From: an uncultured virus (IMG/VR IMGVR_UViG_3300035502_001146)
Taxonomy: Duplodnaviria; Heunggongvirae; Uroviricota; Caudoviricetes
Length of the DNA stretch: 56,565 nucleotides
IMG/VR virus record: IMGVR_UViG_3300035502_001146
Strand: one strand, 5' to 3'
A program made the translations under genes and the position numbers. Position 1 is the first letter of the stretch, and each line of letters begins with the position of its first letter. Shown here piece by piece: positions 9,470-54,400 of the stretch. The notes below the pieces were generated by a model. The model worked only from the letters and a program-made list of their open reading frames with translations. It made no database searches and was not told where the DNA came from.

Positions 9470-12400
9470 GAAGTATAAGGGGAGAAGAAATTCTCCCTTT
9501 TTTATTCATTTATTTTTGATTATACAAGGTTTTTATATTTCAATGGATAAATAATTAAGTAAAAATAAAGCAGCTCCTAAAATTGATTGTAGAGCCTTTT
9601 AACAGGTGTTATTTAATGTTTAGATTATTACTTAGAATAATATTTAAAAATACTACTTAAATAAAAATATTTATTTAAAATCGCTATTTCATGAAATTAC
9701 TATTAAATGATTTATTAAGAATAAATATTTAATAATTAATTTAGCGACAGTAAATTATGAATTGAAATTATAAAACCCTTTATTTATCGGTGTTTTTGTA
9801 AATACAAGGTGAATTTTCTTAGTAAGTCAGTTACTAAGTTTTTTATTGCTCAATATAGAATTTAAAATATTCACATTTATACATTAGAATGTTTTTTCTT
9901 ATTATTTAATGTTTAATTATGAATTAAATTTTACGCAGTTCAAAACTTAAATCACAATTTATCTATTAAATAATTTATTTTTTATTACACCTTGTTTGTA
10001 GGTATATATCGAATAATTGCATTTTGTAAATTGTGAACAATTTGTAAATTTTTATTTTTTTTTGAAAAAATGCAAATAATATGGTTTATGAAAACTATTT
10101 TGATAAAAAAAACCTTCTTTAGGTTAGACATAAAAAATAAGTAAGTTTTTTTATTCAATTTTGAGCAAAAAAAGTATTCATATTTAGACAATAGAAAAAT
10201 AAAAAATAAATCCTCAAAGCCCTTTATTTAAAGGGTTTTGGGGATTTTTCTATTGTTAAAAAAGTAAAATAAATGTACAAATAAGAATAGAATGTAATTT
10301 GCGAATTCTCCATACCAGGTACTGTTTTCAGTTTTCAAAATTGGCGTTTTTTATTCTTTTTTGTACAAAAATGTACATTCAAAATTGCATTTTTTGCAAA
10401 ATTTAACTTGCTGAAATATTATAAAAATATGATGTTTTAGAAAAAATAGTTTGATTAATTAAAGTAAAAAAATTATTCAATATTGGACATAGTTTATTCC
10501 AGAATGGACACTAAATAGATAAGTAATAAATTACTTATCAAAAAATAACTAAAAGTAATATTAATAATTAATTTATTAAAAGTATTATTAATTAAATTAA
10601 TAATTAATTATTTTATAAGATACAGTAAATAATTTTCTTTTAAATTAATTACAAAAAAGAATAATAAATAATTTTGTTGAATAAGAAATTTGAATTAATT
10701 ATTTTTTGGAATAATAAGTAAATTAAATTTTTGTCTAATTAAGAATTTTTCTAATAAATGTTTTAATAATTATTTTTTTGGAATAATGAAAATTAGAATA
10801 ATTGTTTTTAATAATAAAGAATTTTAAATAATAAGAAATAAGAAAAAGATTGAGAGAGGGTTGTGGGAGTGCTTCGCACATCCCACAGAGTGCTTTCGCA
10901 CTCGAAATAACTATGAGAAGGGTTTTTATTTTCTCTTTTTCTTTTAAGAACAAGATTATTATTTGTTTTAATTGTAGGACTTGTAAAATTATAAGTTTTG
11001 CAAATAATAAAATATTTAATAATTAGAAAAAAGAATTAAATAATTTTCTTATTAGAAAAAACCTTATTAAGAAAAAAGATTTAATAATTAAAAGCTGTTT
11101 TATTAAATTTCTTATTATTAAAAGATATTATTAGAAAATATTAATTCAGAGCTTATTATTTGTTTAATTTTTTTAATTGGGATTTATTTTAAATATTTAA
11201 GAATAAAAAATCTTGTAGTATTAAATTCTTTATTATTAAAAGTTTTCTTATTAAGGAAATTTATTTCTTATTTTGGAAAATAATTAAATTACTTATTAAG
11301 TAAAAAGTCTTATTAGAAAAAATCTATATTTAAAACTTATTATTCAGAGAAATATTATTTTGCTTTATTATTTTAATTTATTTATTCAAGGGTTTATTAT
11401 TTAAAATCTTATTATTAGAAAAGTTATTATTTAAAATTTTTATTTAAAGATAATTATTCAGAGCTGAAATTTATAAATTAAATATTTTATTATTTACTTT
11501 ATTTCAAAAACCAATTTATTGAAACTTATTATTAAGAAAAAAATTAAATAAGAAAAATTTACTGTATAAGAAATTATTAAATTATTTATTTGGTAATTTC
11601 CTTTTTTTATTTTTCAGATAATAAGAAAAGTTATTATTAGAAAAATCCTTATTAGAAATTTTTTATTTTAAATCCTCTTCTTTAAGAAAAAAGAATATTC
11701 ATCAAATTTCTTATCTAATTATTTATTATTAAAAATTTTATTATTTAAAAATTGCCTTTATTAAATTTCTTATTATTTAAACTTCTTATTATTATTCAAA
11801 ATATCATTTAAAATATTTCTTTGCTTTAGGAAAAGACTTTTTCCTTTTTAGCAAAATTTCCCTTTGTAATATAACCGCAACGATTTTTTGTTGTAAAGTT
11901 ATATATAAAAACTTATAATTAAGAATTTTTTATTATTCAGTAAGTTTTGTTAAATAGAAAAACATTAGTTAGACTTTTGATTTAGAATAGCGTTAAAAAC
12001 GCTCACAATCAATTTTGAGAGCTTTTAACAAATAAGTGGATAAATTATACCTTAAAAAAATAAAACCTCTTAAAATTGAAAATAGAGCCGTTTAACGGCA
12101 TATTGAAAAATTTCACCTTGTTTATATTACAGCCACGATTTTTTAAATTTATAAAGATAATATTTATTTTTGAAAAATAACTCTTTAATAAAAGAGCTTT
12201 TTAAGAAAAGAGTTTTTTTAATAAATGAACTTTTAATAAATTGTTTAATAAGAAAACTTAGAAATAATTTTAGGAATAATTAGAAAAAATAATTAGTTAG
12301 AAGAAATTAAGAGATTTTTTATATAAAAACATTTTTATAGATAACAAGTTGAGAACCAACACAAAACCTATCTTAAAATCAACGAGAATGGCTCTAAAAT

Positions 12401-12568
12401 CAATTTTAACAAATAAGTGGATAAATTATACACTAAAATCAAAACACCTCTTAAAATCAATTCTGAGAGCTTTTAGAGGTATATTTATTTTTTAGAGTTA
12501 TTCACTAATTTTTTGTAATATTTTTTTACAATAAAAAGGTGGTATTTTTCAACCACCTTTTAATTTTC

Positions 12569-13154: not shown

Positions 13155-13559
13155 TTACATTTCAATGTTTTCTACATTTTCCTGTGGTTCTGTAAATTGT
13201 ATCGTAAGGTGATATTTTTCAAAAACCTTAAAACCTCTTTCATTATAATTGCTCCAATTATCAAGGTGGTCTGAAATGTTATCTAAGTTTATATATAATA
13301 ACTTATATCCATTCCCTTTACCGTTGCCACAATTCTGCATAGCTCTTTGTATATCTTTACTCCAATTATCTGAATAAAAAGGATAGCTACACTCTACATT
13401 ATTCCAAGTAATAATATAATGTGGATTATTACCATTCACAAACTGAACCCTATTAGGCTTTTTATCCTTATATTTATTTATAACTTCTTTAAAATTTTTA
13501 TAGTTCTTTTCTTCACAATAAAGCTTTACAATATATTTAGCGTTTAACATATTTCTCAC
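13155..13559 (-). CDS. hypothetical protein (paralog family with 1685, 13807)
   Basis: RBS, promoter, terminator; shared motif. Confidence 0.75.
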   Translation of the reverse strand: MRNMLNAKYIVKLYCEEKNYKNFKEVINKYKDKKPNRVQFVNGNNPHYIITWNNVECSYPFYSDNWSKDIQRAMQNCGNGKGNGYKLLYINLDNISDHLDNWSNYNERGFKVFEKYHLTIQFTEPQENVENIEM

Positions 13560-15360: not shown

Positions 15361-15813
15361 ATTAAACCATCCTTTCAAAATGTAATAGATTAAGTGTTTG
15401 TTTCCTTTACTGTCTTTATTATAGCACATTACAGAATGAATTTCAAATACTTAAATCCTATATTTATTATAACATTATAATTATACGGGGGTTGAGCTGT
15501 TCTAAAATGTATTATTAAATAATTTATTATTAAAGAGGTTTGTTAAAAAAAGATTTTTTAAATAAATTTCTGTAAATAAAAAAGGGAGATTAAATCTCCC
15601 TCTGTATCATTCTCCTTTTTTATTTATCAACTATACTGTACCAATCATATCCGTAACATTTAAGTTCAGCGGCAGTAATAGAATTTATAAAATCGTGACT
15701 ATTCACATATTCATTTCTTGCTTTCATACTTTTAAATCTTAATAACACTTTCCTATTAGTTCCCCATACACCTTGCACTGCATAATAAGTTCTTTTCATA
15801 GTTCATTCTCCTT

Positions 15814-18979: not shown

Positions 18980-19903
18980 TTAATAAAAGAATACATATTC
19001 TTGTTTAGTATTTAAATCACCATTATATTTAGCTGTTACCTCTGTGAAAAAGTTCTTTGCACAAAAAATTCTTTTGTTGGTTACAATATAATATTTATTG
19101 TTATTCTTTTCTTTTTTTAATAAATCAATCGCAACCTCTTTTAGCTGCTCAATGCTACCACCTTGAATATATTTGATAATCTTTTTAGATATAGTACACA
19201 ATATAGCTTGCTGTTGCTTTTCTCTATATTCTTTTATACTATCGTTTATTTCTTCTACATCATATTCATTAGTTATCTCTAATACCTGTTGGCTAATAAG
19301 ATAATTATGTTTTCTATATGGTAGAATAAATATATTATTAGGAAAATAAGTCTTTAACTCTTTTATCTGTTCAACAATATTCTGAACATTTTCCTGTGTT
19401 ATCTGCTCAACATTATTTTTTATTGTTACATCGTCAATCTCCCTTTCGTTTGTTTTCTTTATTATATTATTATCTAAATATATAAATGTCTTTTTCGCAA
19501 AAGCATTTTCACTGTTCTTAACCGCTGTGTTATTTATCTTTAAATTATAGAAAAAATCTTTAGTATTAGTTTCACCGATGCAAATACCAATATTTAATTT
19601 TTCTATATTATCATTTAAAATAATATTATCTTGAATAACCTTTTCTGAAAAGTCAACATCTCCAACAACATCAGTTTTACTGAATAGAAATTCGTTGTTT
19701 ATATTACGGCTAATTTTAGGCTTAGTAATTGAATTTACCTTTACAATAGTAAAGAATGGGTTTTCTCTTGCAAAATCAATCCTCGCCTGTTGCTGATTTT
19801 TTGATTTTATTATTTTACTATACAATTCTTTTGCTATAGGGGTGAACTTAGAAGTATCACTCTTTTTTCTATATGTTATTTTATATTCTTTTAAATTGCT
19901 CAT
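18980..19903 (-). CDS. hypothetical protein
   Basis: 307 aa, AGGAGG RBS, terminator. Confidence 0.8.
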   Translation of the reverse strand: MSNLKEYKITYRKKSDTSKFTPIAKELYSKIIKSKNQQQARIDFARENPFFTIVKVNSITKPKISRNINNEFLFSKTDVVGDVDFSEKVIQDNIILNDNIEKLNIGICIGETNTKDFFYNLKINNTAVKNSENAFAKKTFIYLDNNIIKKTNEREIDDVTIKNNVEQITQENVQNIVEQIKELKTYFPNNIFILPYRKHNYLISQQVLEITNEYDVEEINDSIKEYREKQQQAILCTISKKIIKYIQGGSIEQLKEVAIDLLKKEKNNNKYYIVTNKRIFCAKNFFTEVTAKYNGDLNTKQEYVFFY

Positions 19904-23497: not shown

Positions 23498-23918
23498 TTA
23501 AATAATTTATAATAATATTCTTTAAATATTTTCTTCTAAATATTTTTTTAACAATAAAAGGTATATACATTTCTTAATTAAATAAGAGCTGTGTATATCT
23601 TTTTTATTAATTCATTATTAAATTGTTTATTATTAAATTATCTATTATACATAAATTTAAATATAAATATTTTATTGAGCTGAATATTTAATTATTTTAT
23701 TCATAATTTAATAAATAGTTTAATAATTCATTTGCTGATTATTCTCTTAATATTTAATCATTTATTAAAATTATAAAATGAATAAATTATAAGAAAAGTG
23801 AATAAAAAACTTTTTATATACGGGATAAAATGAATAAAATAGTGAATATTATTGAATAATGATGTATAAATTATAATCTTATAATTAACATTAATTCTTC
23901 TTTTTTATTAAAAACTTA

Positions 23919-24434: not shown

Positions 24435-25871
24435 ATGAGCAATGAAGATAAAACAATGATTATATGTAGAAAAATTACACTCACACCACTTGGTGATAAA
24501 GCGGAAGTAGATAGGGTATATAAATTTATTCGTGATGGACAAAAAGCTCAATATAAAGCTCTTAATCTCTTTATGAGTAAATATGCAAATTTATATTATA
24601 AGTATAATTGCGATAAAACTAATGAAGATTATAAAAAAGAAGTAAAAGAAATGCGTAGAGCTGCGTATTATAATTCATTATATAACTCTGCTGATATTGT
24701 TTTCTGTACGGGTGTTGATACTCAATCTTTAGTATCTAAAAAGGTTATAAGTGATTTCGATACTGCATACAATAATGGTTTAAAGCGTGGTGAAAGAAGT
24801 ATAAATAATTATAAATCTGACTCCCCTCTTATGACAAGACATATTAATTTGAAGTTTAATTATGATTATGCAACCGAGGAAGAATTTTTACAACATTTAA
24901 ATAGTCAAGATTTATCTATAACTATGGGTTGGGTAAATCATATTAAATTTAAAGTTAATTTCGGTAAGGGTAAAAATGTTAAAAAGTCTTATGAATTGAG
25001 AAGTGTATTCAAAAAGATTTTAGTAGATAAAACTTATTCTGTTAGGGATAGCTCAATTACTATTGAAGATAATAAAATCATTCTTAATTTGTCTTTGAGA
25101 ATACCTAAGAATATTGTTGAGCTTGACAATAATACTGTTGTAGGTGTTGACCTTGGTATTGCTGTTCCTGCTGTGTGTGCAACTAATAATACTATAGCAA
25201 AACAGTTTTTAGGTTCAAAAGATGATTTCTTGAAAACAAGAACGCAAATACAAAACCAAAGAAGAAGATTATATAGTGCTTTGAAAAATTCTAATGGTGG
25301 TAAGGGTAGAGATAAAAAACTTAAAGCCGTAAATAAATTTTCTGAAAAGGAAAAGAATTTTGTTGCTACTTATAATCATACTATAAGTAAACAAATTGTT
25401 GATTTTGCCATAGCTAATAAAGCTAAGTATATCAATGTGGAAGATTTAGAGGGTTATGATACAGATAAATTTGTTTTGAGAAATTGGTCTTATTATCAAC
25501 TGCAATCACAAATTGAATATAAAGCAGCTAAGTACGGTATTGAATTAAGAAAAGTAGACCCATATCATACCTCACAAAATTGCTCTTCTTGTGGTCATTG
25601 GGAAGAAGGTCAAAGGAATGGTAGATATTTTGAATGTAAGGCTTGTGGAGCTAAAATGAATGCTGATTTAAACGCCGCAAGGAATATTGCTTTATCTGCT
25701 AATATTACTTATGCTGATGGAAAGAAGATAGAAACTAATACTACTGATGTTCCTAAAAAGAAAACTTATAAGAAAAAGTCTAAGGCGGTAAATAAAGCAG
25801 TGAATAAAATTAAAGAAAAGAATAAAACTAACAATATAACAGATAATGTAACTACTAAAGAAGTAATTTAA
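24435..25871 (+). CDS. Cas12f1-like (type V-F/TnpB superfamily) RNA-guided nuclease, no adjacent array
   Basis: RuvC I VGVDLG, RuvC II INVEDL, LRNWSYYQLQ..IEYKA, CSSC/CKAC zinc ribbon, RuvC III NADLNAARNI; GL.RGERSI.NYK...PL and GGKGR.KKL motifs as recalled from clostridial Cas12f1. Confidence 0.85.
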   Translation: MSNEDKTMIICRKITLTPLGDKAEVDRVYKFIRDGQKAQYKALNLFMSKYANLYYKYNCDKTNEDYKKEVKEMRRAAYYNSLYNSADIVFCTGVDTQSLVSKKVISDFDTAYNNGLKRGERSINNYKSDSPLMTRHINLKFNYDYATEEEFLQHLNSQDLSITMGWVNHIKFKVNFGKGKNVKKSYELRSVFKKILVDKTYSVRDSSITIEDNKIILNLSLRIPKNIVELDNNTVVGVDLGIAVPAVCATNNTIAKQFLGSKDDFLKTRTQIQNQRRRLYSALKNSNGGKGRDKKLKAVNKFSEKEKNFVATYNHTISKQIVDFAIANKAKYINVEDLEGYDTDKFVLRNWSYYQLQSQIEYKAAKYGIELRKVDPYHTSQNCSSCGHWEEGQRNGRYFECKACGAKMNADLNAARNIALSANITYADGKKIETNTTDVPKKKTYKKKSKAVNKAVNKIKEKNKTNNITDNVTTKEVI

Positions 25872-26246: not shown

Positions 26247-26618
26247 ATGAGTTGGGATTTTTATTTATGCGATTCAGTGTCTAAAGAAGTTTTGACTATT
26301 GATAGTCCGCATTTTATGTTCGGTGGTACTTATTGCCCTAATGGTACTAATCAACTGCATCTAAATATAACTTATAATTATTCTAAAGTTATAAACCCTG
26401 CTATGTTTGATGTGCCACAAGAGGAAACTTATGCAAAAGTCTTTAATGGTAAGTCTGCATTGGAAACTATTCCTTTATTAAATAAGGCTATAAGTAATCT
26501 ATCTGATAATACAGACGAGGATTATTGGAACCCTACCGAGGGTAACGCTAAGAGAGCTTTGATTCAATTATTGACTATTGCTAAAATGCGTCCAGACGGT
26601 ATTTGGCAAGTAAGTTAA
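26247..26618 (+). CDS. hypothetical phage protein
   Basis: AAGGAGG RBS; MSWD...LNITYNYS...DYW.PTEGNAK. Confidence 0.8.
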   Translation: MSWDFYLCDSVSKEVLTIDSPHFMFGGTYCPNGTNQLHLNITYNYSKVINPAMFDVPQEETYAKVFNGKSALETIPLLNKAISNLSDNTDEDYWNPTEGNAKRALIQLLTIAKMRPDGIWQVS

Positions 26619-26672: not shown

Positions 26673-26945
26673 ATGTTAAATTATAATATTGAGCTGACTA
26701 ATTTAAATAATGGATATAAGAAAATTATCGAATTACCTATTAAGGAAAGAATTTTAAAGGAAACTATGGAAAATTTTATTTATTCTAATTGGGAGTGGAG
26801 TTGTTTCTATCCCGATAATATATTTAAAACAATTTCTTGTTTGAATAACGGAAATCTTTTGAATATAAATAGAAATTTAATTACTTTATCTGAAAGGTTT
26901 ATTGACGATGATTATATTTCTTATACTTATACTAAGGGGGATTGA
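26673..26945 (+). CDS. hypothetical protein, weakly similar to N-terminus of the ArdA-like paralogs
   Basis: IELTN..NG..KIIELP......NWEWS vs 47268 VTITN....GKIELP......NWFWS. Confidence 0.6.
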   Translation: MLNYNIELTNLNNGYKKIIELPIKERILKETMENFIYSNWEWSCFYPDNIFKTISCLNNGNLLNINRNLITLSERFIDDDYISYTYTKGD

Positions 26946-27358
26946 TTTTGTATCTATTGAATAAAAAGACTAATAATAAAATAACTTTTAATGAATTGTT
27001 TGAGCTTGTTAAATATAATCAATCTTTAAAAATTGGCAGCTCTGCTGATATTCTATTATTATTTATAAATATGTATAAGGGTGAAATTAGATTTTTTTCA
27101 GATACTATAGATATGGATAATATTGATTTTATTTTGAAATTATATGGAGCTGATATTTCTAATATCTCTTATTATACTAAATTATCAAATAATGAATTTT
27201 CTGATGTGTTGGATAATCTAATTGTTGATAAACAAATATCTATTCATACTTTGGATAATTTAAATATTATTGGTTATGTTTATTTCTCTTGTATTTATGA
27301 TATAGATAACTTTTTAAAAGCTATACCTTCAATAAGTTCTTTACTTGATTATGAATAA
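26942..27358 (+). CDS. hypothetical protein
   Basis: start overlaps previous stop, AAGGGGG RBS. Confidence 0.6.
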   Translation: MILYLLNKKTNNKITFNELFELVKYNQSLKIGSSADILLLFINMYKGEIRFFSDTIDMDNIDFILKLYGADISNISYYTKLSNNEFSDVLDNLIVDKQISIHTLDNLNIIGYVYFSCIYDIDNFLKAIPSISSLLDYE

Positions 27359-27436
27359 TATTGCGAATAATATAATTATTTTTTTTATAAGGGTGAGTGT
27401 AAAATTCACCCTTGTTTTTATTTATTTAATTTTTCC

Positions 27437-29221
27437 CTAATAGGGTAGTAATATTTTTACCATTTATATAATCAATTTATTTGCCCTTATATTTAATGAT
27501 AATTATTTTAATGTATTATTTATTTAATTATTTATTTATCTATTTATAATGGCTTTATAATTTATTTAGGCACTTGATTATTTATTGGTTTACTTTGTAA
27601 TTTTTCTTTATATATTAAATTCGTCTATTAGGGTAGTTGATATTTTAAGTTTAATATTTAAAGTTTTTATAATTTAATCATTTATTATTCTTTTTCTTAT
27701 TAGATGGTTTAATATTATTTATATTTATTGTTTTAGCTCTGTTGGATTTTTTATTTATTTATCTAATAATTGTTAAGGTATTTATTAAATAATCTAATTA
27801 TCTTAATTTTACCTAACAGGGTAGTTGCTTTTTTAGCCTATATATAATAGCTTTATTTCGCCTTGTATTGAACGATAGATATTTCATTGTATATTTTATC
27901 TGCTTTATTATTTACGCTGCGTAGGAGCTGAATAAGCGATTTATAAATTGATTATATAATTATCTATCTATTGTAAATAATATTTATTTTTGGTTTAGTG
28001 GTATTCAGTTTCTTATATACCTATTTTATGTATATGATAATTTTACTTATTAGGAAGTTTATATTTTTATTTATTATAAATATTCTTAATTAAATATTTA
28101 TCTTAATATACTTTATCTATTATTAAATGTTTTCGTTTAAATATAAAAAAGCTCATCGGAGCTGTAATTGATTTATATTGTTATTTAGTCTATTGTTTTA
28201 TAAGTGATTGATTTTTTATATGCTATTTATTGTATATTGTTATTTCGTCTATTAGGGTACAACCTTTTTAGCTCTTAGAATAAAGTAGTATTGAATAATT
28301 AAATATTTTACTATAATAAATAATTTCCCTTTATATACTTGTTTCACCTAATAGGGTAGTAATATTTCCCCCCATTATTCGGGAGAAAAGTATTTTAATA
28401 ATATATTTATTTAAAACACCTATGGAGCTGAATATATTTAAAACTATTTTTTAGTAAATTTTTCTTAATAAATCATTTAATAAGCAATAATACCTATTAG
28501 GGTAGTCATTATTATTGGATATTTATTATAATGTAATTTAAATGTTTAAAATAAAAATAAAGGATAGATTTTTATTTCTATCCTTTATTTATGTAATAAT
28601 TATTCATTTGTTTGATTTTACCTAATAGGGTAGTTGACTTTTTTACCTACAAATATATGTTGTACTAAATGAGGTTTGAAATGTTCTAACTACTTGACCT
28701 TGTATAAAGTTTGCTTGCCAAATACAGCCTTGTGAATTTGGTGGTCTATACCCATTCAATAATTTTATGGCTGCATCTATTGACCGTCTGCTGGGGTAGT
28801 TATATATTGTACCATTGATATAGGTTTCATATTGACCTGTTTGGGTAATAACACCTTTTACTGTATTAGGAAATTGTGAACTATCAACTCTATTCATAAC
28901 TACTGTACCTACCCACAATTTATGTTCGTCTGTACAACAATCAGAAGCTTCAGCATCTATCACTCGGCTCAACCAATACAGGTCCTCATCTGAATAATTC
29001 TGAACGGTTGTAGCCTCTGTTGTTGTGTCTATTAGGGTAGTCGGCTGTATGGTAGTAGTTTGTACTTGTATTGTTGTCGTTTCGCTTGCTATCTCATAGG
29101 CTATTGGTGAAATGTCTATTAGAGTAGTCGTTGCTATGGGAATTTCAGTGGTCAACTGTATAACATCCGCACTATTGCCATTAGCGGCTGTATAGGATTT
29201 TTCAATACCTGTTAGGGTAGT
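27437..29221 (+). repeat. 11 same-orientation copies of a 13-mer, consensus CTAWTAGGGTAGT
   Basis: copies at 27437, 27625, 27813, 28249, 28348, 28494, 28622, 28788, 29029, 29116, 29209. Confidence 0.9.
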
Positions 29222-29371
29222 CGATAACTGTGGAGTTATGGTGGTTTGGGCGTAAAGTACCACATTTTCAGTGCTATTCCTATCGCCGTCAAAAACTTTA
29301 TAGGCAATATATGCGGCTATAAAATATAATATTATCAATATCAATATTACAAGTCTTTTCTTATTACTCAT
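28643..29371 (-). CDS. SleB/Hydrolase_2-family cell wall hydrolase with N-terminal TM and Thr-rich linker
   Basis: DLYWLSRVI.AEA...VG.VVMNRV.S..FPNTV.GVI.Q.GQY; start moved to ATG 29371. Confidence 0.85.
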   Translation of the reverse strand: MSNKKRLVILILIILYFIAAYIAYKVFDGDRNSTENVVLYAQTTITPQLSTTLTGIEKSYTAANGNSADVIQLTTEIPIATTTLIDISPIAYEIASETTTIQVQTTTIQPTTLIDTTTEATTVQNYSDEDLYWLSRVIDAEASDCCTDEHKLWVGTVVMNRVDSSQFPNTVKGVITQTGQYETYINGTIYNYPSRRSIDAAIKLLNGYRPPNSQGCIWQANFIQGQVVRTFQTSFSTTYICR

Positions 29372-29526
29372 TGTGTACACTCCAATCTTTAATTGTATTT
29401 TGCTATTTGCTTTAGGCAAAATTATTCCTTTACGGCTTTTTGATTTTTGCCCACAAATAACCCTTGTTATTTCTATGTTATTTCAAAAAGATAGGCGGTA
29501 CGGTTTGTACCGCCTTTTCTTTTTTA

Positions 29527-30519
29527 TCACTCGGTTACTACATCTTTAAACAAGTTATAGATTGAGTTAAAAGTCTTGTTGTTGTTGCCCTTGCCTTGCA
29601 AGAAATTTTCAACCTCACGCTGTACCCACGCTTCACCGCTATCGTGAACACGCTGTGGTTTTCTGTTTGGTTCGAGTGCGTTGATAGCCTTGAGAATATC
29701 CATTGGATTAGCATAGTAGCTATTTTCAAGCTCGTTTGTAATTTTCTCGTAAAATTCCTCACGAGTTTTCACTCCGTATTCTCTTATTGCCTTATCTGAA
29801 AAGTCTTTTGTTTGGAAAACATTTTTCAGAAGGTTTGTGAAATTGTTGTCAAGTGCAATCTCGTTGTACTTGTTTACTCTAAAAGCCTTTTTTGCTTTGA
29901 GTGCAAGAACCTTTTCGATGATTTCCTTTTTCTCGTTGATAACCTTGTTATAAAAATCATAGAAATGACCTTTAATTTTGTTATCAGCGTTTTCAGTGTG
30001 ATTTAAGTCACCGTCAAGAGTGTTTGTGAGTGTGTACTCAACATTGTCAATCTTTACGATAGCGAAAACCTTTATAGCCTTATCGCCGTCAAAAGAATTT
30101 CTCAATACAAAGTACAAACCGCCGTTTGTGCCGATTGATTCAGTCTTTACTACAAGATACGCACCGAGTGCATTATCATAGGTAAACAAGTTTACGATTT
30201 TTGGTTCGCTTGCAACAGTTTTAAGCTGTTCAAACAAGTTTGTAAAGGCTTCATAATAACTAACTACATTGTAACGAGTAGTTACGATTTTACTACCCAT
30301 CATTTGCATTTCATCTCTAGGGTCAACAATGATTGCTGGCACATCTGTTGCCCTATTTGTACCACGCAATCTTGTATCTGTTATTGCTGATACAGTAGGC
30401 AAAAAGTTCAAACCAAACTTTTCGCAAAGAACTGTTACATCGTTGTTGCACTCCATAACAAGTGCATTATCGTTTGTTGAAAATCTGTTTGTGAGTGTGA
30501 GTGTTGTGTTGTTTAACAT
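29527..30519 (-). CDS. DUF932/TIGR03299-like phage/plasmid protein
   Basis: IVTTRYNVV..EAF and YFVLRNSFDG..AIKV motifs; AAGGAGG RBS; two tandem consensus promoters; terminator ~29490-29525. Confidence 0.65.
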   Translation of the reverse strand: MLNNTTLTLTNRFSTNDNALVMECNNDVTVLCEKFGLNFLPTVSAITDTRLRGTNRATDVPAIIVDPRDEMQMMGSKIVTTRYNVVSYYEAFTNLFEQLKTVASEPKIVNLFTYDNALGAYLVVKTESIGTNGGLYFVLRNSFDGDKAIKVFAIVKIDNVEYTLTNTLDGDLNHTENADNKIKGHFYDFYNKVINEKKEIIEKVLALKAKKAFRVNKYNEIALDNNFTNLLKNVFQTKDFSDKAIREYGVKTREEFYEKITNELENSYYANPMDILKAINALEPNRKPQRVHDSGEAWVQREVENFLQGKGNNNKTFNSIYNLFKDVVTE

Positions 30520-30621
30520 AGTCATTTCCTCCTTGAAATTCAGAACCATTATATTAAATGGTTTAGTTATAGGTTTTGTGTTATCGGTGCGGCGTTGCCC
30601 TCACCTTTATGGTAATTACAT

Positions 30622-30766: not shown

Positions 30767-33020
30767 ATACTTTTTTAAGTAAATTTGCAATTTCATTTAT
30801 TTGCACAAAAACTTTTTTAGTTTAATATTTTTTGATTGTGCAATATTTATAATATTAAACTGATTCCAGCAAAAAATCAGCATTGTATATATTGATTTTT
30901 AAAAAACCCGTAAAGCCTTTATTTAAAGGACTTGCAAGCCTTTTAATTTTGATTTTCTGAATAATTCCTTCTATTACATAAAAACAAACATTTTTGCATT
31001 GTGTGTTTTATATTATATTTCATAATATTCAATGCTTGCATATACCTCATATTTGCCGTTTATTTGCTTGTTTAACGGCGTTTTAACTTGTATGCGTGGA
31101 ATTTATCGACTATGCAAATGAACCGCCGTAAAATGCAAAATAACGCATTATAAGCCTATGTTTGACTTTTTGAGTATGACGGCAGGCAATAACTAATTTT
31201 ATTTTTGGTATCTGATTGAGTATTAGCTTGTATATGCTTGTAAATACGCTTTAAATGGCTTTATTTGCCTTTTATTTGCTTGTATAGATAATTTATACCA
31301 CAACGCAAAATACCGCCGTATATGGGCAAAATAAAGCGATATACAGCGGTATTGTATTTTGTTGTTTTTTGGTTCGATGTGATTTTTGCTTGCGTCCAGA
31401 AAATTGATTTTTCAGATATATACATTTTTTCCAATTTATACCATATAACAAATATTGTATAATTCTTTTAATCATTATATGGAAAATAGTATAATAAATT
31501 TTTCGCCTTTTTTCAGAATTTACGACTTTATGTTATAATCTGAATAATAGTTATAACAAAATTGGTATGGAAAAATCGGCTTTAAATATTTAACAAAAAT
31601 AAGCCTTGTTTTTTAAACAAAATGTTCAAAAATTGCTTGTTTAATGTGTTCAAAAACACAATATGATATTTGTATATATTTAACAATGATAAAATCGGCT
31701 ATTTTACAAAAATATAGCTAAAAAACCGCCTAAAAATGACCTTGTTTTTAAACAAAATTACAATAGCTAAAAATCAGCGTTATGTACAAAAATAACATAT
31801 TTAAAAGGTGAATTTTGTATATAAACACAACAAAATTCTTAAATATATTTTTTAAAAATGTACAAAAATAATTAAAAAATAGGCTAATTTTTAGGTAAAA
31901 ACAGAGAAAAATAAGGGTAAAAATAGCCTAAAAAGTGCCTAAAAAAGTCGCCAAAAAAACCCGTTTTTTGTATATATTGCTGGGCATACCCCCCTTAAAT
32001 TACGGGGTAATTTTTGAGCTGGTTTTTAGGAAAGCAACAATTATCAAACGGCATTTATTGAGCTATATTTATATATGTTATTTAATTATTGTTTCTTTAT
32101 ATGTTATTTCTCTATACATTATTTTCTCTATATATAATTTAATGATTTTTTGTAGAATAAAATACTATGGTAAAAAATTTTCATGAAAAAATTTTGAGAA
32201 AAACGGGCTGGGTAATTATAAAAAGAAATATTAAATATTTTATTAAATGGTTTATTAAGATAATCTATTGTTTATTCTTTGTTTATTTTTTTTATTTGTT
32301 GTTAAATGTTTTAATAAGCGAACTATAAATAATCGTTTCTATAAATCTTTCTTATAAACCGTTTCTATAAATTATTTCTATATATAAATTTTAATCGTTT
32401 TCTATAGAACAAAACTCTATGGCGAAAAAATTTCATGAATTTTTTTTGGGAAAATAGGGTGGTAGATTATTTAATGGCTGTAATAAATAATTATTATATA
32501 TTGTAATTGTTTTTCATAATAGAGCTTTTATTATTAAAATATTCTTTACTGTTTATTGTTTATCTCTTATTATCAGAAATATTATTAGAAGTTTATTTAT
32601 TGTTTTATTATTTATTATTAACTCATAAAATCGCTTATACTTTTTTTACATAATATTTACTGCTGCAACATTTGATTATTTTTCTTTATAACAGAGCTTT
32701 CCTTATAATAATTTTTACTCATTCTCTATAGATAAAAACCCTATATAAAAAATTTTCATGAAAAAAATTTGGAAAAACGCCCTTAGAAAGAATATTATTA
32801 AAAAGAATATTATTAGAAAGAATATTGTTGGATTAAAATATTTTTATTTATGATAGCGTTTTATTTATAATTGTTTTTTTAATAATCTTCTTTTTGTAAA
32901 GAAAACAATAAAATAAGAGGGTTTTATTATACCCTCTTAGTATTGATTATAAATTTCATTTTTCTTTTACTTCGTTCAATAGATAAACTTATATTTAAAT
33001 CAAATTTTATATAATAGCTT

Positions 33021-36523: not shown

Positions 36524-38020
36524 TTAAATATATACTAATCCACTATTATTCCTAATAATGGTACAGTCTTTTGTAGGATAGTTTGTATTTTTGTCACCTA
36601 CTGCACGAAGATATTGTCCATTAGAAAGCTGACCACTCATAGTATAAATCTTGTTCTTATACTCAAATTGAGTTCCTGGCATAAGTCTATTTTTAGTATT
36701 ATATCTTCTAGTACTCTTAGTAACTTGTAATTTGGATTGAAGCTTTCTAGCTTCTAATTTTCCAAATTGTTGCTTAGTTTTGATATACCATTCATGTAAT
36801 GAATCTTCTTTTTGGTCCATACGTTTTCTTCTATTCTTAGCAACAATTTGGTTATCTAACTTATAAACTCTCTCTGTTTGAGCTTTGACAATACTTCTAT
36901 TATGTTTTCTAAATTGTTTCAATTGAAAACAATCTTCAGGAATATCTAATAAAAAATTATCGTTATCTTTTAAAATACTTACTGCTATACAATAGGCATC
37001 TATATTATGGTCTTTCTTAATATTAAATTCATTTCTAAAGCATTTGGTATTGTAACCGTTGGTTACAATCACTTCATACTTTTTAGACAATTCATTTATT
37101 AGAAATGGAATAATTTGATTTAATACTGATAAAGCACCATACTTTTTATTTAATCCATTCTTTTTAGTTAATAATTTTTTATTCCATTTCTCATTATTAT
37201 GAACCAAAGTATGGTGCTTTTCACATACACCTGCTATATTAGATATAGTGTTACTACCACCTTTACTTTTAGAAATTATATGATGATAATGGTCTATTTT
37301 ATTTTTACATAAAATACAATGACAATTTTGTTGCTCATTTATGGCTTCTTCTAATGAACCTTTTTTATATAAAGGACCTCTAGTATAATCCAACTTTCTA
37401 ACATTAGGATTATCTAAAGCCATAAATGCAAATTTATTAATTTCTATTACAATAGTTTGAATAGGAAGAAGAGACGAAGTCTTTTCTACTTTATTCAAAT
37501 GTGTTTGTAATAGTTGTCTTGCAGTAGGAGTGAGCCACCCTACATCTCTTTTCCTATTGCAAAATTTAGATTCTGAATTGATAATATCATATATAAAAAT
37601 AGGCTTATCGTATTTAGGTAAAATTCTTTCTTTAGGATAAGAAAATATAGTATTACACTTTTTAGCTCTTCTCTTACGGCATAGGCGTTCACCTCTACGT
37701 GAAGCCATTCTATGAACTTTACGATTAGCCATAAGTTTAGGTATTTCCTTATTCCTAGTTTCTGTATGAGCTGAATATAGTGTTTTACCGTCTATCCTGA
37801 TAGCTGTATCACCTATATTAGTTCTACCTGGGTCGATACCTAAAATTATAGGTTGAACCACTTTTGTTTTAGTTTCATACAATAGTTGTATGGTAAAAGG
37901 TTTTCTGTTCACCATTTTAGCTTTTTTAGATTTCAATAATCTATACACTTTACCAGAACGGATTGTAGGCATAAGTAGTGAACCGTTTAAATCTAAAACA
38001 TATATAATTGACATACCCAC
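36524..38020 (-). CDS. iscB: IscB RNA-guided endonuclease
   Basis: LLMP (PLMP) N-terminus, PFTIQL, RuvC I LGIDPG, Arg-rich bridge helix, IVIE, HNH (C..C...HH....GGSN...N...C..HH), RuvC III H.IDA. Confidence 0.92.
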   Translation of the reverse strand: MGMSIIYVLDLNGSLLMPTIRSGKVYRLLKSKKAKMVNRKPFTIQLLYETKTKVVQPIILGIDPGRTNIGDTAIRIDGKTLYSAHTETRNKEIPKLMANRKVHRMASRRGERLCRKRRAKKCNTIFSYPKERILPKYDKPIFIYDIINSESKFCNRKRDVGWLTPTARQLLQTHLNKVEKTSSLLPIQTIVIEINKFAFMALDNPNVRKLDYTRGPLYKKGSLEEAINEQQNCHCILCKNKIDHYHHIISKSKGGSNTISNIAGVCEKHHTLVHNNEKWNKKLLTKKNGLNKKYGALSVLNQIIPFLINELSKKYEVIVTNGYNTKCFRNEFNIKKDHNIDAYCIAVSILKDNDNFLLDIPEDCFQLKQFRKHNRSIVKAQTERVYKLDNQIVAKNRRKRMDQKEDSLHEWYIKTKQQFGKLEARKLQSKLQVTKSTRRYNTKNRLMPGTQFEYKNKIYTMSGQLSNGQYLRAVGDKNTNYPTKDCTIIRNNSGLVYI

Positions 38021-38039
38021 ACTCCTTTCTTATAAAGTA

Positions 38040-38265
38040 AAAATAAATAAAATAAAAATAATATAAATATATTGTTCTAAAGCGGTAAGCGAGTACAATA
38101 TACAAAACTCTAAGGTTTCCCTAAGTTAGATATAATGTTTCCAGTTTAACTATCGACTGGGAAAATCAATAGGTGGCATTATATCTATATGCTTCTGCTC
38201 AACAAGCCTTACGGCAAGCCACCACTTCTAAAAATTCATAGAATTTTTAAGTGGTGGTTGTTGAC
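38040..38265 (-). ncRNA. IscB omegaRNA scaffold (3' boundary approximate)
   Basis: begins GTCAACAACCACCACTT...AAGTGGTGGCTTG; multiple hairpins between element end and iscB start. Confidence 0.75.
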
Positions 38266-38552
38266 TTATTCCTGATATGTAATCTTTGTATCTATCCGCA
38301 TTACTGATATTTACAGAACTACATACGTCACAAATTGCATAAAACTTATCATTTGATTTTTTAACCATAAAAATTACCCTCTTTCTTTTTTATTTTGTAA
38401 AATTATAATAACACAAAGTTCGAATTTTGTCAATACTAAAAGGAAAAATTGATATAAAAAATTATATATAAAATTTTACATTTTTATATATTGACAAAAA
38501 ATAGAAAATGTTGTATAATTAAGCTAAAAAATATATAAAGGAGGAAAGAATC

Positions 38553-50070: not shown

Positions 50071-51155
50071 ATGCCAGTAATTATACCACAAAAAATTGAA
50101 GTTATACCTTGCAATAGAGCACCTCATTATAGAAGTAAAGGGTATGTGTTTACAAATCCAAGATTAAAAATTGAAGTAGAAGCAAGAGATTTAAGTAGTG
50201 GAAGTAATAAAAAAGTTTTATGTGAATGTGATTGTTGTAAAATTGAATTTAAAAAAGGTTTTAAGTTTATAGAAAATATTAATGAAACATATTGTGGAAA
50301 GTGTTCTACGATAATTACTTGTCAAAAAAAATATGGCAAAGATAGTCCAATGCAAGACGAACAAATTAAGAGAAAAATAAAAAAAACAAATCAGAAAAAA
50401 ATGAAGAAGACCCGTTAAGAGTAAAAAGAATTATAAAAAAAAGAGAAGAAACGAATATGAAGAAACATGGTGCAAAATATTATTTGCAATCAGAAAAAGG
50501 AAAAGAAAAACAAAGAAATACAATAAAAGAAAAGTATGGTAAAGATATTGAAAATATTTCTCAAATAGAAGAGGTAAAAAATAAAAAACGACAAACTTGT
50601 TTGAAACATTTTGGTGTAGAAAATCCTTCACAAGATGAGAGTGTAAAAAGAAAAAAAATAGAAACTTGTAAAAAACATTATGGTGTAGAGTATTTTTCAC
50701 AATTAGAAATTGAGAAACAAAAGAGTAGAGAAAAACTTATAGGTATGGTAGAAAATGGTAAATGGAACATATCCTCAAAGTCTCAAAGGTATTTATGCGA
50801 ATTGTTAAAAGGAGAACTTAATAAATCAATAGCAAAAGGTACAGTTGTTGATATCATAAAAGATAATTATGCAATTGAATATGATGGTTCAGGTCATTGG
50901 TATGCAGTGATAAGAAAAAAGAATAAGATTACTTTAGAAGAATTTAATAAAAAAGAAAAAGAAAGAGAAAAAAGGATTCTTAGTAAAGGATATAAACTTA
51001 TTAGAATAATTAATGCTAATGCAAAAAATGCAGATAAACTTCCATCTGATGAATTTATTTTAAATACTATGGAATCTATTAAAAACGAATTAAATATTCA
51101 AAATAAAAATATTGCTCGTTGGAATTTGGAAGACAATTCCATTATTTATGAATAA
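50071..51155 (+). pseudogene. frameshifted putative free-standing homing endonuclease (Zn-ribbon, K.YG repeats, PD-(D/E)XK/Vsr-like C-terminus)
   Basis: ORFs 50071-50418 and 50457-51155 join by a -1 shift near the A7 run at ~50395-50401; T..KKYG/KHFGVE/KHYGVE repeats in both; VDI....AIEYDG.GH. Confidence 0.65.
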
Positions 51156-51248
51156 TTAAATAGTTTAAAAAGAAAATTTACTTTTGTGTTTAAAAATTGT
51201 ATTTTTTCTTTTATATAATTATAAATTTGTAATTTGAAAGGTGGTGAA

Positions 51249-51386
51249 ATGATGAATACGACAGTTCAATTGCCAAAGGAGCTTGTAAACGAATATACTA
51301 TTTTAGCTGTTAAGATGGGTATGCGTAGAGGTGACGTAATTAGATTGGCATTAAAAGAATTTTTAGATAAGAGCAAAGAGGTTTAA
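51249..51386 (+). CDS. ribbon-helix-helix (CopG-like) protein, 45 aa, not in ORF track
   Basis: GAAAGGTGG RBS; TTVQLPKEL......LA...GM.RG.VIR.AL.EFL. Confidence 0.75.
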   Translation: MMNTTVQLPKELVNEYTILAVKMGMRRGDVIRLALKEFLDKSKEV

Positions 51387-51428
51387 TTTATCTTTGTATA
51401 AGTGAAAAGTAAAGGAGAGTGATACTGT

Positions 51429-54400
51429 TTGGCTAAAACAACAGACACCAAACACGAATTAGAGAAAGTTAATAAGGAACACGAATTAGTTAAAGAAGAT
51501 GTATATGATATTCAGAATAATAAGATATTTGGTCAAGATATAAGTTTTTTGATTGGTAATAGAATTATGCAAAGAACTGACCCAATTTATTATTGTGAAA
51601 ATACTTTAAGATGCCATTTGCCTGAAAAGAAAAGACATTTGCACGAAAACCAAGTAGAGCTTATTAAGGCTGTTTGTAATCCTCACTATCGTAAGGTAGC
51701 AGGACTGATGGCAAGACAGGCTGGTAAATGTTTTGAAGCAGATACTTTAATTATGATGGCAGATGGTACTTCTAAAAAAGTACAAGATATTAAAGTTGGT
51801 GATTATGTAATGTCACCACAAAGCACTCCCTCAGAAGTAATTGCTTTGGGTAGTGGTTATGAAGAAATGTATGAAATATGTACAGCAGAAAAACATTATA
51901 AGAATTTTACTGTTAATGGTTCTCATATCTTAGCAGTAGAAGATAAAAAGAATAAAATAAAGACCATTACTGTAAATGATTATTTGAAATTAACAAAGTA
52001 TAGACAAAGCCAATTATTTGGTTATAGAACTTCTGTTGATTTTGAAGAAAAGCCTGTTACTATTGACCCTTATTATTTAGGTTTATGGTTGGGTGATGGT
52101 AGAAGTAATTATAGTGAAATCTCTAATATAGATGAAGAAATAATAAATTATGTACAAGAATATGCTGAACGATTAAATATGAAATTTGCAGTATATGAAG
52201 GTGTTGGTGGTAGAATTAATTCTTATGCTATTACCAATGGTAACAATGGAACTAAGAGCAATACTAATTATATAATTGATGAATTAAGAAGAATGAATCT
52301 TTATAATAACAAACACATTCCTGATGAATATTTATATAATAGTATGGAAATTAGAAAGAAATTACTTGCAGGTTTAATTGATACTGACGGTTATAAAGAA
52401 AAAAATTGTACATTAACTATTTCTTTTGCTAATAAAAATTTAGCTGATGATACATTAAAACTTTTACAAATGTGTGGTTATCGTGCTTCAATGAAAGAAA
52501 AAATTGTAAAAATGAATGGTAAAAGTTTTTTAGAATATGTAATTTATGCTTATGGTGATTTTACAGATGTACCTATAAGGTTAAAAAGAAAACAATATAC
52601 AATGAAACCACAATGTGACCATTTAAAGTTCGGTTTTACTATTAAATCAAAAGGTATGGGTAAATATTATGGTTTTGTAATAAAATCAGATGACCATTTA
52701 TTTTTGTTGGACGATTGTACTGTAGTCCACAATACAGAGAGTATCGCAAGTTTTACTGGTTATTTGCTCGATAATTATCCACAAATGAGAATTGGCATAT
52801 TCACTCCAAGAATACAACAGGCAGAGGTGGGCAAAATCTTGCCTCTATATTCCTAATTACTTGATAAAGTAAGGTATATTAAAATATCAAATGCTTTAAT
52901 ATGCTAACGAGGAAGACTTAGCATTACACATAAATGTTAAAATATGTTTAGGTGAAGTTAATCTCGTGCGAATTATAACAATTAAATAATTGTTATTCGT
53001 GTATCGACTATCCCAAGTTAGATTGGGAGTACAGACTTATATAAAAGTTTGGAAACGGAATAACTGATTTAAAAAGTTTGACAAACTTATAGGTTAAGAA
53101 ATAGTCAGTCCTATTAGAAATAATAGATTAGATGAAATGTTGGTAGAGTTGCCATTTTTTACCAAATGAATGAAGAAAAACTAAACAATCAACTTGTTCG
53201 TTGTAATAAACAAAAGATAGAATTAAGTAATGGTTCTTATGTAATGGCAGTATCAGGTTCTGACCAATCTAATATCGAAGGTTTAACTTTCGACGTAATC
53301 GTACTCGATGAAGCCCAAAAGATAAGTGATTATACGTGGAGTGAACGTATAATGCCAATGGGTGGAGCTACGAATGCTAAGATGATTAAAATTGGAACAC
53401 CAAAGACGAGAAATCATTTTTATCAATCATTCCAAGTTGATACTGAAAATCCAAGAAATAATTGGAAATGTGTAAAAAGAGATTGGACACAATGCCCTCA
53501 GTTATGGGCTTTGGATTCTACAATGTTACCTGACCCACAAACAGGTATTTTAAGACCATATAGTACTTACGTTCTTTCTCTTATGCCTAAAGCATTAAAG
53601 CAAGAAATGTTTCCTAATAATCCTGAAATGTGGTTCGAAGGAGTAGCCAAAAGGCTATGCTCCCTATTAAGAAGTAATTCTTAGTAGAAAAATTCTTTTA
53701 ATTGCTGAAAATTCTTAAAGCTAATTATACTATTAAAGTGTTTAATAGTTGTGAAAACAGAAATAAATAATTAGATAATATATGACGATAGTAAGTCTAA
53801 GTATTAAAATGATAAATTTTAACAATAGATAATCAGCAGCAAAATATATAAACATTTATATATATGTTCAACGACTATGCCTGAAAGGCAGTAGGATATA
53901 AGTATATCTGAAATAGAGAAATACTTAATATATTTAAGTATATGAGATAGTCTGTACAATGATGAAAGTTATTGATTTTTATAAATATTATTACATAACG
54001 AATAATAATTAACACAATAGAAATGTCAATAGAAGATTTTAAAACGCAGTATATGCTCGAATTTATTGATGGTTTAAACATTTTTAGACCCATTTTTGTA
54101 GTAATATAAAAATGAAAAAATTTTTTAATTGCTGAAAAATCTTAAAGCTAATTATACCTTACAAAAAGGTTACGAAAGTAAAAATAAATAATTAGATAAT
54201 ATATGGTGATAGTAAACCTAAGTATTAAAATGATAAATTTTAACAATAGATAATCAGCAGCAAAATATATAAATAAAAAATTGTTTATATGTATGTTCAA
54301 CGACTATGCCTGAAGGGCAGTAGGATAAAAGTTTATCTGAAATGGAAGAGTACTTAATTTGTTTAAGTAGATGAGATAGTCTGTGCAATAATGAAAATTA

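Follow-up and report, generated by a model that had tools for sequence, protein, structure and literature searches.

What does a short motif do that recurs in one orientation across a non-coding gap and on into the coding sequence of the neighbouring enzyme? The question is raised by a locus in a 56,565-nt stretch of DNA from an uncultured virus (hereafter the window), which is a fragment of a jumbo phage. The 69 window ORFs scanned against Pfam and PHROGs include an NAD-dependent ligase, a thymidylate kinase, an intein-bearing terminase piece and ArdA, together with two TnpB proteins and one RRXRR/HNH (IscB-type) protein. The first-pass annotation had read the repeats as clustered binding sites, such as parS- or iteron-like sites or a T5-like injection-stop signal.

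A co-oriented array of a 15-bp motif spans a convergent gap and a hydrolase gene

The locus contains a motif with consensus RYCTRNYAGGGTAGT, present in 11 same-strand (+) copies over positions 27435–29221 according to a matrix of the 11 copies (Table 1). The motif is 15 bp long rather than 13 bp, with AC or GT preceding on the 5′ side in 10 of the 11 copies. A mismatch scan of positions 27437–29221 identifies 10 plus-strand matches at ≤2 mismatches, comprising six exact copies (27437, 27625, 28348, 28494, 28622 and 29029), three copies with one mismatch (27813, 29116 and 29209) and one with two (28249). The copy at 28788, which encodes NYPSR, has three mismatches and completes the 11 copies of the first-pass annotation, and the matrix adds a weak twelfth at 28835–28849, with a score of 13.4 bits. 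Across the whole window there are 11 matches at ≤2 mismatches, compared with a mean of 2.9 and a maximum of 8 in 100 shuffles, and the single minus-strand match, at 15747, is unrelated to the array. The 11 copies score 18.3–28.6 bits with a matrix trained on these very copies, against 12.3 bits for the best match outside the array in the 56.6 kb. In addition, TAGGGTAGT ranks first among the clustered 9-mers of the window, with 7 of 7 occurrences within 1.8 kb (log10 p −18.5, next best −8.2). The motif scan that the first-pass annotation had proposed thus confines the array to 1.8 kb, with nothing comparable elsewhere in the 56.6-kb window.

The site is built around a symmetric core, CT-RNY-AG, with a strong half, YAGGGTAGT, and a degenerate other half; among the window copies listed, the left half deviates from an inverted repeat by 3–5 mismatches. 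Most copies read CTAA(T/C)AG followed by a G run, and the strand that carries CTAA alternates between copies. All 12 copies, including those in the gene, lie in one orientation with the same strong half. Seven of them are non-coding and five, counting the weak twelfth, lie within the hydrolase gene; the split into seven non-coding and four coding copies, and the peptides assigned to the latter, had been described correctly. Six copies are positioned between two terminators, and one between the hydrolase stop and the hydrolase terminator.

The start-to-start spacings of the 11 copies are 188, 188, 436, 99, 146, 128, 166, 241, 87 and 93 bp, and range from 49 to 436 bp with all copies counted. 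The first three copies are indeed 188 bp apart, yet an equal consecutive pair is expected in 2.7% of random placements, so the argument from the 188-bp spacing is weak. Helical phasing of the copies is absent (maximal Rayleigh R 0.53, p 0.44). Outside the 15-mer, which is better conserved than its surroundings, most flanks are no more alike than chance predicts, and 4 of 132 comparisons between them exceed the 99th percentile. The likeness between the flanks of copies 3 and 1 is probably the trace of an old duplication, and the overall pattern suggests some old duplication after which the 15-mer alone was conserved.

The G+C content of the gap is 19% against about 26% for the whole window. The gap holds no stable hairpin besides the two terminators, fold z-scores are significant only at these terminators, and an Rfam scan of the locus returned no match; a CRISPR array or a structured RNA was rejected on these grounds and on the lack of a regular repeat-spacer period. 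The hydrolase has a hydrophobic N-terminus, a Thr-rich linker and a catalytic domain that is 78% identical to its counterpart in the relative G002 described below. The neighbouring DUF932-like protein is 23% identical to its syntenic orthologue in G002; its gene has a GC3 of 0.39 and is near-invariant in the lineage (cluster members 99–100%), and it may represent either an allele swap or fast divergence. A search of viral contigs found no relative of this ORF, no sequence homolog besides itself was found, and a fold search with its predicted structure, a poor model (pLDDT 44), gave no match.

Table 1. Coordinates of the array, its neighbourhood and the related elements of G002 (positions refer to the window unless a G002 locus is named)
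Feature	Position	Strand	Basis
Motif copy 1, non-coding, 20 bp past the plus-strand terminator	27435..27449	+	mismatch scan, matrix
Motif copy 2, non-coding	27623..27637	+	mismatch scan, matrix
Motif copy 3, non-coding; matches copy 1 at 27/40 positions of the downstream flank	27811..27825	+	scan, flank comparison
Motif copy 4, non-coding, 2 mismatches	28247..28261	+	scan, matrix
Motif copy 5, non-coding	28346..28360	+	scan, matrix
Motif copy 6, non-coding	28492..28506	+	scan, matrix
Motif copy 7, between hydrolase stop and terminator, in 43 bp that G002 lacks	28620..28634	+	scan, alignment
Motif copy 8, weak, catalytic domain, NYPSRR (G002: NQPSQR); sole copy in the other frame	28786..28800	+	
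Twelfth copy, weak, ITQTG (G002: ITQSG)	28835..28849	+	matrix
Linker copy, Thr-rich, TTLID; best possible match for its own peptide	29027..29041	+	
Linker copy, TTLID, at a 4-residue gap in the G002 alignment	29114..29128	+	
Linker copy, TTLTG; G002 encodes TTL by common codons	29207..29221	+	
Convergent non-coding gap, 1284 bp, 19% G+C, T-rich on the plus strand	27359..28642	.	
Intrinsic terminator-like hairpin at the end of the plus-strand block	27387..27415	+	
Intrinsic terminator-like hairpin of the hydrolase, kept in G002	28555..28590	-	
SleB/CwlJ-like cell-wall hydrolase (Pfam Hydrolase_2), 242 aa	28643..29371	-	
DUF932-like protein, 340 aa, two consensus sigma-70 promoters ahead; without motif copies	29527..30549	-	
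Left-flanking ORF, 138 aa; its G002 orthologue is followed by the DnaA-box gap	26942..27358	+	
oriC-like cassettes of G002 (AT-rich stretch, TAG trios, G run, 10–11 DnaA-box-like 9-mers)	L007:18640-19120, L021:15500-15900 (58.8, 335.7 kb)		
Isolated palindromic or half-site motif versions, G002, non-coding	L005:6801-6819, L006:8588-8641, L008:1466-1484		

The copies within the hydrolase gene are a DNA-level signal

The hydrolase gene and random recodings of it were scanned with a matrix derived from the seven non-coding copies only. The gene contains five matches of ≥8 bits and three of ≥15 bits. Recodings with the codon usage of the genome reach these two counts in 1/2500 and 1/2500 cases, and recodings with the gene's own codons in 6/2500 and 2/2500. 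Given the peptide, the per-site probabilities of the five in-gene copies are 4e-4, 1e-2, 1e-4, 8e-3 and 3e-2. Specifically, the same TTL or ITQ peptide is encoded by common codons in G002 and by rare, motif-completing codons in the window, and in an ungapped alignment the catalytic-domain copies depart from G002 through substitutions that are scattered and use rare codons. The in-gene copies are a DNA-level signal, encoded at synonymous positions.

Selection at the DNA level had originally been argued from frame independence. This argument is weak because four of the five in-gene copies lie in one reading frame, the other frame being represented by the weak NYPSR copy alone; it is the codon test that upholds the claim. 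Synonymous conservation in hydrolase homologs, proposed as a further check, is formally lacking in G002, the sole homolog with DNA, whose hydrolase gene has no copy and a maximal score of 3.1 bits, with heavy synonymous divergence between the two genes (50 of 96 identical-residue codons differ). Since the G002 gene has no copy, the array is lineage-specific and not a conserved family feature. Furthermore, a 95%-identical hydrolase variant, available as protein only, places 3 of its 13 amino-acid differences in the 26 motif codons, where 1.4 are expected, so the in-gene copies are not specially frozen between close variants.

A jumbo-phage relative lacks the array and carries DnaA-box cassettes

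G002, a 379-kb IMG/VR record, was retrieved by the hydrolase and the ligase, and an overlapping 151-kb record is identical to it at the locus. Among its 177 scanned ORFs are baseplate, portal, PolIII, DnaB, primase and gyrase genes, and no member of the DnaA family is encoded. Most window ORFs have homologs in G002 in a shuffled order, with the ligase 94% identical; the hydrolase pair is moved and inverted relative to the window, and the locus is a rearrangement junction. Only the names of the hydrolase and amidase relatives point to a Clostridia host. The region from 16 to 27.6 kb of G002 (L005:15869 to L006:7603) encodes a tandem large-protein family with a repeated unit of ~45 residues, for which the member scanned gave no Pfam match.

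G002 has no motif array; its most clustered words come from two CRISPR arrays and from coding or intron repeats. Two matrix matches, of 24.8 and 21.9 bits, are near-perfect 19-bp palindromes with two mismatches each in long non-coding regions, one of them flanked by an inverted half-site. The strong half-site occurs five times against 2.4 expected, a modest excess, with four of the five occurrences non-coding, and the motif sites of G002 point both ways. The 19-bp palindrome pattern was defined after the G002 matches had been seen, so its count of 4, against 0–2 in 40 shuffles, is inflated. These palindromes suggest a dimer site native to the phage group, although they could alternatively be hairpin stems. 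The motif pair on L006 is preceded by a long hairpin close to the main point of transcription divergence. G004, which belongs to the G002 lineage (88% like G002), has three scattered one-mismatch matches. The more distant G003 (181.8 kb) has neither ligase nor hydrolase and no matrix match above 11 bits; with the region absent, it is uninformative.

Behind the G002 orthologue of ORF 26942–27358 lies a long, convergent gap with an AT-rich stretch, TAGTAGTAGG and 11 DnaA-box-like 9-mers (≤2 mismatches) within about 200 bp, and a second homologous cassette is located at 335.7 kb. The boxes are of the TGTTGATAA variant, the same as in the T5 iss. In the available part of PMC10201434, the basal unwinding system of oriC is laid out as DnaA boxes plus DnaA-trios; the G002 cassette matches this box-plus-trio layout, whereas the window array has neither the TAGTAGTAGG trio run nor boxes at ≤1 mismatch (none in 27359–29400, against four in a T5 control). 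The two gaps share no DNA homology, and their shared neighbour is on the left side only. The G002 DnaA cassettes are the best lead. The main point of transcription divergence, near 30–31 kb, lies about 27 kb from the first cassette, and at least 10 DNA methyltransferase genes are clustered around the second (L021; 320–340 kb).

Distribution of the motif in other genomes

In viral contigs, all 79 loci with ACCTAWTAGGGTAGT and all 11 loci with a 16-mer variant hold one exact copy each and no cluster by matrix; likewise, in genome contigs, 80 loci among at least 120 matches are all single copy. Distant homologs of ORF 26247–26618 occur in 73 loci, all 73 without array and without synteny. A blastn search against 50,697 phage records returned only short AT-rich or hydrolase matches, a metagenome search with the hydrolase alignment found no relative, the ligase has no relative in genome contigs, and the lineage-specific ORF 18980–19903 has no Atlas match. 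The open-licence literature, supplements aside, contained nothing relevant under literal spellings of the motif and nothing on jumbo-phage parS/partition direct repeats, DnaA-box origins or iteron control.

Across 301 genomes from the class to which a Lachnospiraceae MAG belongs, taken as the presumed host class, the motif shows no enrichment: there are 25 matches in 23 genomes, fewer than a reversed-pattern control gives. This frequency, no higher than that of the control, makes a site for a common host regulator unlikely, and the idea was set aside.

Other elements in the window and in G002

An A-tract element at 31849–32800 of the window combines a phased stretch with three 85-bp repeats that share a TTTTCATGAAAA core, and is conserved at 108.3–108.8 kb of G002 with two repeat copies. 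It is a candidate packaging or terminus signal; the 31.8–32.5 kb element is internal in G002, with neighbours oriented differently. Another convergence point, at 9470–12568, is a 3-kb non-coding region partly conserved in G002 (84–87 kb), where GC-rich short hairpin repeats near 10860 of the window come after a very AT-rich stretch. G002 has two copies, at 53.4 and 107.8 kb, of a non-coding element of ~115 bp (23770–23885 in the window); the copies are inverted and about 90% identical, and the element sits at rearrangement junctions.

G002 carries two CRISPR arrays, at about 18400–19000 of L018 (278.5 kb) and about 14700–15200 of L022 (354.7 kb), with related 30-bp repeats, 34–37-nt spacers and no Cas family among the ORFs scanned. 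Spacer targeting was considered and rejected: 14 spacers gave only 14–15-nt chance matches, and no G002 spacer matches the window or G003 beyond chance. The window encodes, at 24435–25871, a 478-aa TnpB/Cas12f-like protein that is syntenic in G002 (69% identical), is directly followed by a terminator-like hairpin and has no obvious IS ends; it may have been domesticated and is a candidate partner of the cas-less CRISPR arrays. An IscB-type (RRXRR/HNH) element at 36524–38270 is absent from G002 and interrupts the 5′ part of its host gene, which is intact in G002 (L002 about 13200–13380). In the region 50071–56565, an intein that carries a LAGLIDADG domain splits the terminase large subunit; the region also contains DUF7487 ORFs, repeated intron-like segments and a TnpB, and the intron-like segments have many copies in G002 at 124–129 kb.

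The array as a probable cluster of protein-binding sites

We read the array as clustered binding sites of one sequence-specific, probably dimeric and probably phage-encoded protein, selected for site density and not for spacing, with a probability of about 0.8. Tight clustering, the codon test, chance-level flanks, the lack of RNA or DNA structure and the lack of enrichment in the 301 genomes count for this reading and for an origin alike, and the G002 palindromes fit a dimer site of the phage group. The clustered binding sites proposed by the first-pass annotation are thus upheld by the codon test, as predicted sites, and the conservation in homologs expected of them did not hold. Among the 69 window ORFs, which cover 56.6 kb of the genome, the Pfam and PHROGs scans found no binding protein or initiator.

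As to function, we tentatively place the locus, at somewhat less than even odds, as a replication-origin or initiator-binding region (iteron-like loading or copy-control) that replaces the DnaA cassette, because of its position, AT-richness, direct repeats and the phage-encoded replisome. Specifically, occupancy of the cluster by the protein would serve to melt or organise the 19%-GC gap, and the cluster would stand in for the host-type DnaA-box/DnaA-trio cassette found behind the same gene in the closest relative. The non-coding copies would have spread partly by local duplication, while the in-gene copies would have arisen at codons that already nearly matched the motif. That G002 has its own PolIII, DnaB, primase and gyrase yet no DnaA counts in favour of an origin. 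Several observations count against it: no initiator turned up among the window ORFs; the spacing is irregular and unphased; the positional match with the DnaA cassette is left-sided only, the right side being the rearrangement junction; the AT-rich non-coding region 9470–12568, partly conserved in G002, is an alternative origin candidate; the in-gene copies are absent from G002 and variable in a close variant; and the strong half-site is only modestly in excess in G002, with an inflated palindrome control.

A broader and unlikely proposal is that the convergent gap houses a swappable genome-handling module, filled in one lineage by a captured host DnaA-box/trio cassette and in the other by a polar array for a protein of its own, where selection on the number of sites would have been strong enough to alter codons of the neighbouring enzyme gene. 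In its boldest form, the module would be a T5-independent entry-pause (two-step injection) or a membrane anchor of a Firmicutes jumbo myophage. Replication start, positioning and injection in the 350–500-kb phages of gut anaerobes are largely uncharted, and the locus offers a compact handle on them, with a defined 15-mer and a relative in which a DnaA cassette takes the corresponding position. If array and cassette are functionally equivalent, the locus would illustrate the swapping of initiators or anchors and the spread of binding sites into coding DNA, and would provide a second system for the idea that DnaA-box clusters act as injection stops.

Alternative explanations

The sites may instead form a centromere-like or anchoring cluster, in which the sites, coated by a phage protein, serve to tether or segregate the genome at a membrane, filament or replication factory independently of initiation. 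The number of sites, about 12, their palindromic core and their free spacing recall parS/sopC clusters, in so far as the available part of PMC9178275 describes them, and the array lies downstream of the fast-diverging DUF932-like gene. However, profiles for ParB (PF02195) and TubZ/tubulin (PF00091) each matched in 0 of 2 relative records with positive controls, there is no integrase family match in G002, and the window has no partition gene. Without a ParB or TubZ family match in the relative, the parS idea of the first-pass annotation loses ground, and we consider such a cluster unlikely.

Alternatively, the bound protein could act as a polar roadblock that stops or guides a fork (Ter), a translocase (KOPS) or RNA polymerase read-through. 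All 12 copies are co-oriented at a transcription convergence point, and those in the gene cannot be tandem duplicates. Co-orientation is cheap, however, since duplication would provide it for the non-coding copies and the Thr-rich linker favours ACT-ACC one way, and the terminators already close both blocks. KOPS-like motifs are spread and skewed genome-wide, whereas this array is confined, and the sites in G002 face both ways. A roadblock is accordingly a quite unlikely function.

The proposal of a T5-like injection stop, a pause in DNA entry at which a host or phage protein bound to the incoming DNA would halt transfer until pre-early genes (here DUF932 and the hydrolase) have acted, fares poorly. 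The array contains no DnaA box; the T5 left end lacks the motif (best match 6.4 bits); tblastn with A1/A2 found nothing in the window or in G003 and one 41-aa A2 match in G002 (E 0.02); and the window has no dmp homolog. The T5 iss is conserved across relatives and the array is not, with none in G002, where the equivalent 108-kb element also has no array nearby and oppositely oriented neighbours. What keeps the idea alive, as a very doubtful one, is that the G002 cassette at the matching gap uses TGTTGATAA boxes like the T5 iss (10.1101/866236, available part), and that the array occupies a convergent non-coding gap 3–4 kb from the A-tract element at 31.8–32.8 kb that is conserved in G002.

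Finally, the array could be a functionless by-product, the 15-mer having been multiplied at a rearrangement junction by local duplications plus gene conversion over short tracts (or by an enzyme that nicks or recombines DNA and leaves this sequence behind). Such an origin fits the junction itself, the few flank comparisons (4 of 132) beyond the 99th percentile, the copy in a 43-bp indel, the absence of the array from the relative and the variation of in-gene copies between strains, but is improbable given that the 15-mer alone is homogenised with flanks at chance identity, that the catalytic-domain copies are scattered rare-codon substitutions in an ungapped alignment, and that the relative has no recombinase or Rep_trans match.

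Comparison with known systems

The motif copies bear a likeness to the left end of IscB elements. A footprint of such ends was rejected, as the IscB element in the window has a different end and the copies are not followed by an IS hairpin.

The T5 iss, as the available part of 10.1101/866236 presents it, contains eight DnaA boxes, lies in the terminal repeat about 8% from the first-injected end, needs A1/A2 and is conserved among relatives. The array shares with it a repeat-rich non-coding gap between convergent blocks, and the cassette of the relative has the same TGTTGATAA box variant. The MOBT/Rep_trans nic site, in the available parts of PMC9371924 and PMC6499999, is CT'AA in the loop of a GC-rich hairpin, to which the CTAA(T/C)AG plus G run of most copies bears a likeness (PMC9371924). 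A relaxase nic site was rejected: the CTAA strand alternates, there is no 7-bp stem or hairpin signal, and PF02486 matched in 0 of 2 relative records and nowhere in the window.

Iteron origins and control loci, such as P1 oriR/incA, lambda ori inside gene O and SPP1 oriL, consist of co-oriented 12–20-bp sites by AT-rich DNA; some sites lie inside a coding gene, and control loci can be irregularly spaced. Classical iteron origins have multiple direct repeats of one 12–22-bp site with regular helical phasing, which is not needed in control loci. The array shares with these systems the multiple direct repeats (11–12 co-oriented 15-mers) and the in-gene sites, with a gap of 19% G+C, in a window of about 26%, as a possible AT-rich unwinding region, but differs in that it has no adjacent initiator gene, no phasing and a pseudo-palindromic core, and in that the gene hosting its sites encodes a cell-wall hydrolase.

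The sopC centromere is described in the available part of PMC9178275 as tandem 43-bp units, 12 repeats with 16-bp inverted repeats, located downstream of sopAB and requiring ParA/ParB. With sopC and parS the array has in common about 12 sites and a position downstream of a gene pair, and its symmetric core may likewise suit a dimer, near-perfect palindromes being confined to G002, but its units are dispersed and half-degenerate, and no ParB was found. By these comparisons, the array appears to work most like an iteron or parS-type cluster, with full membership in neither.
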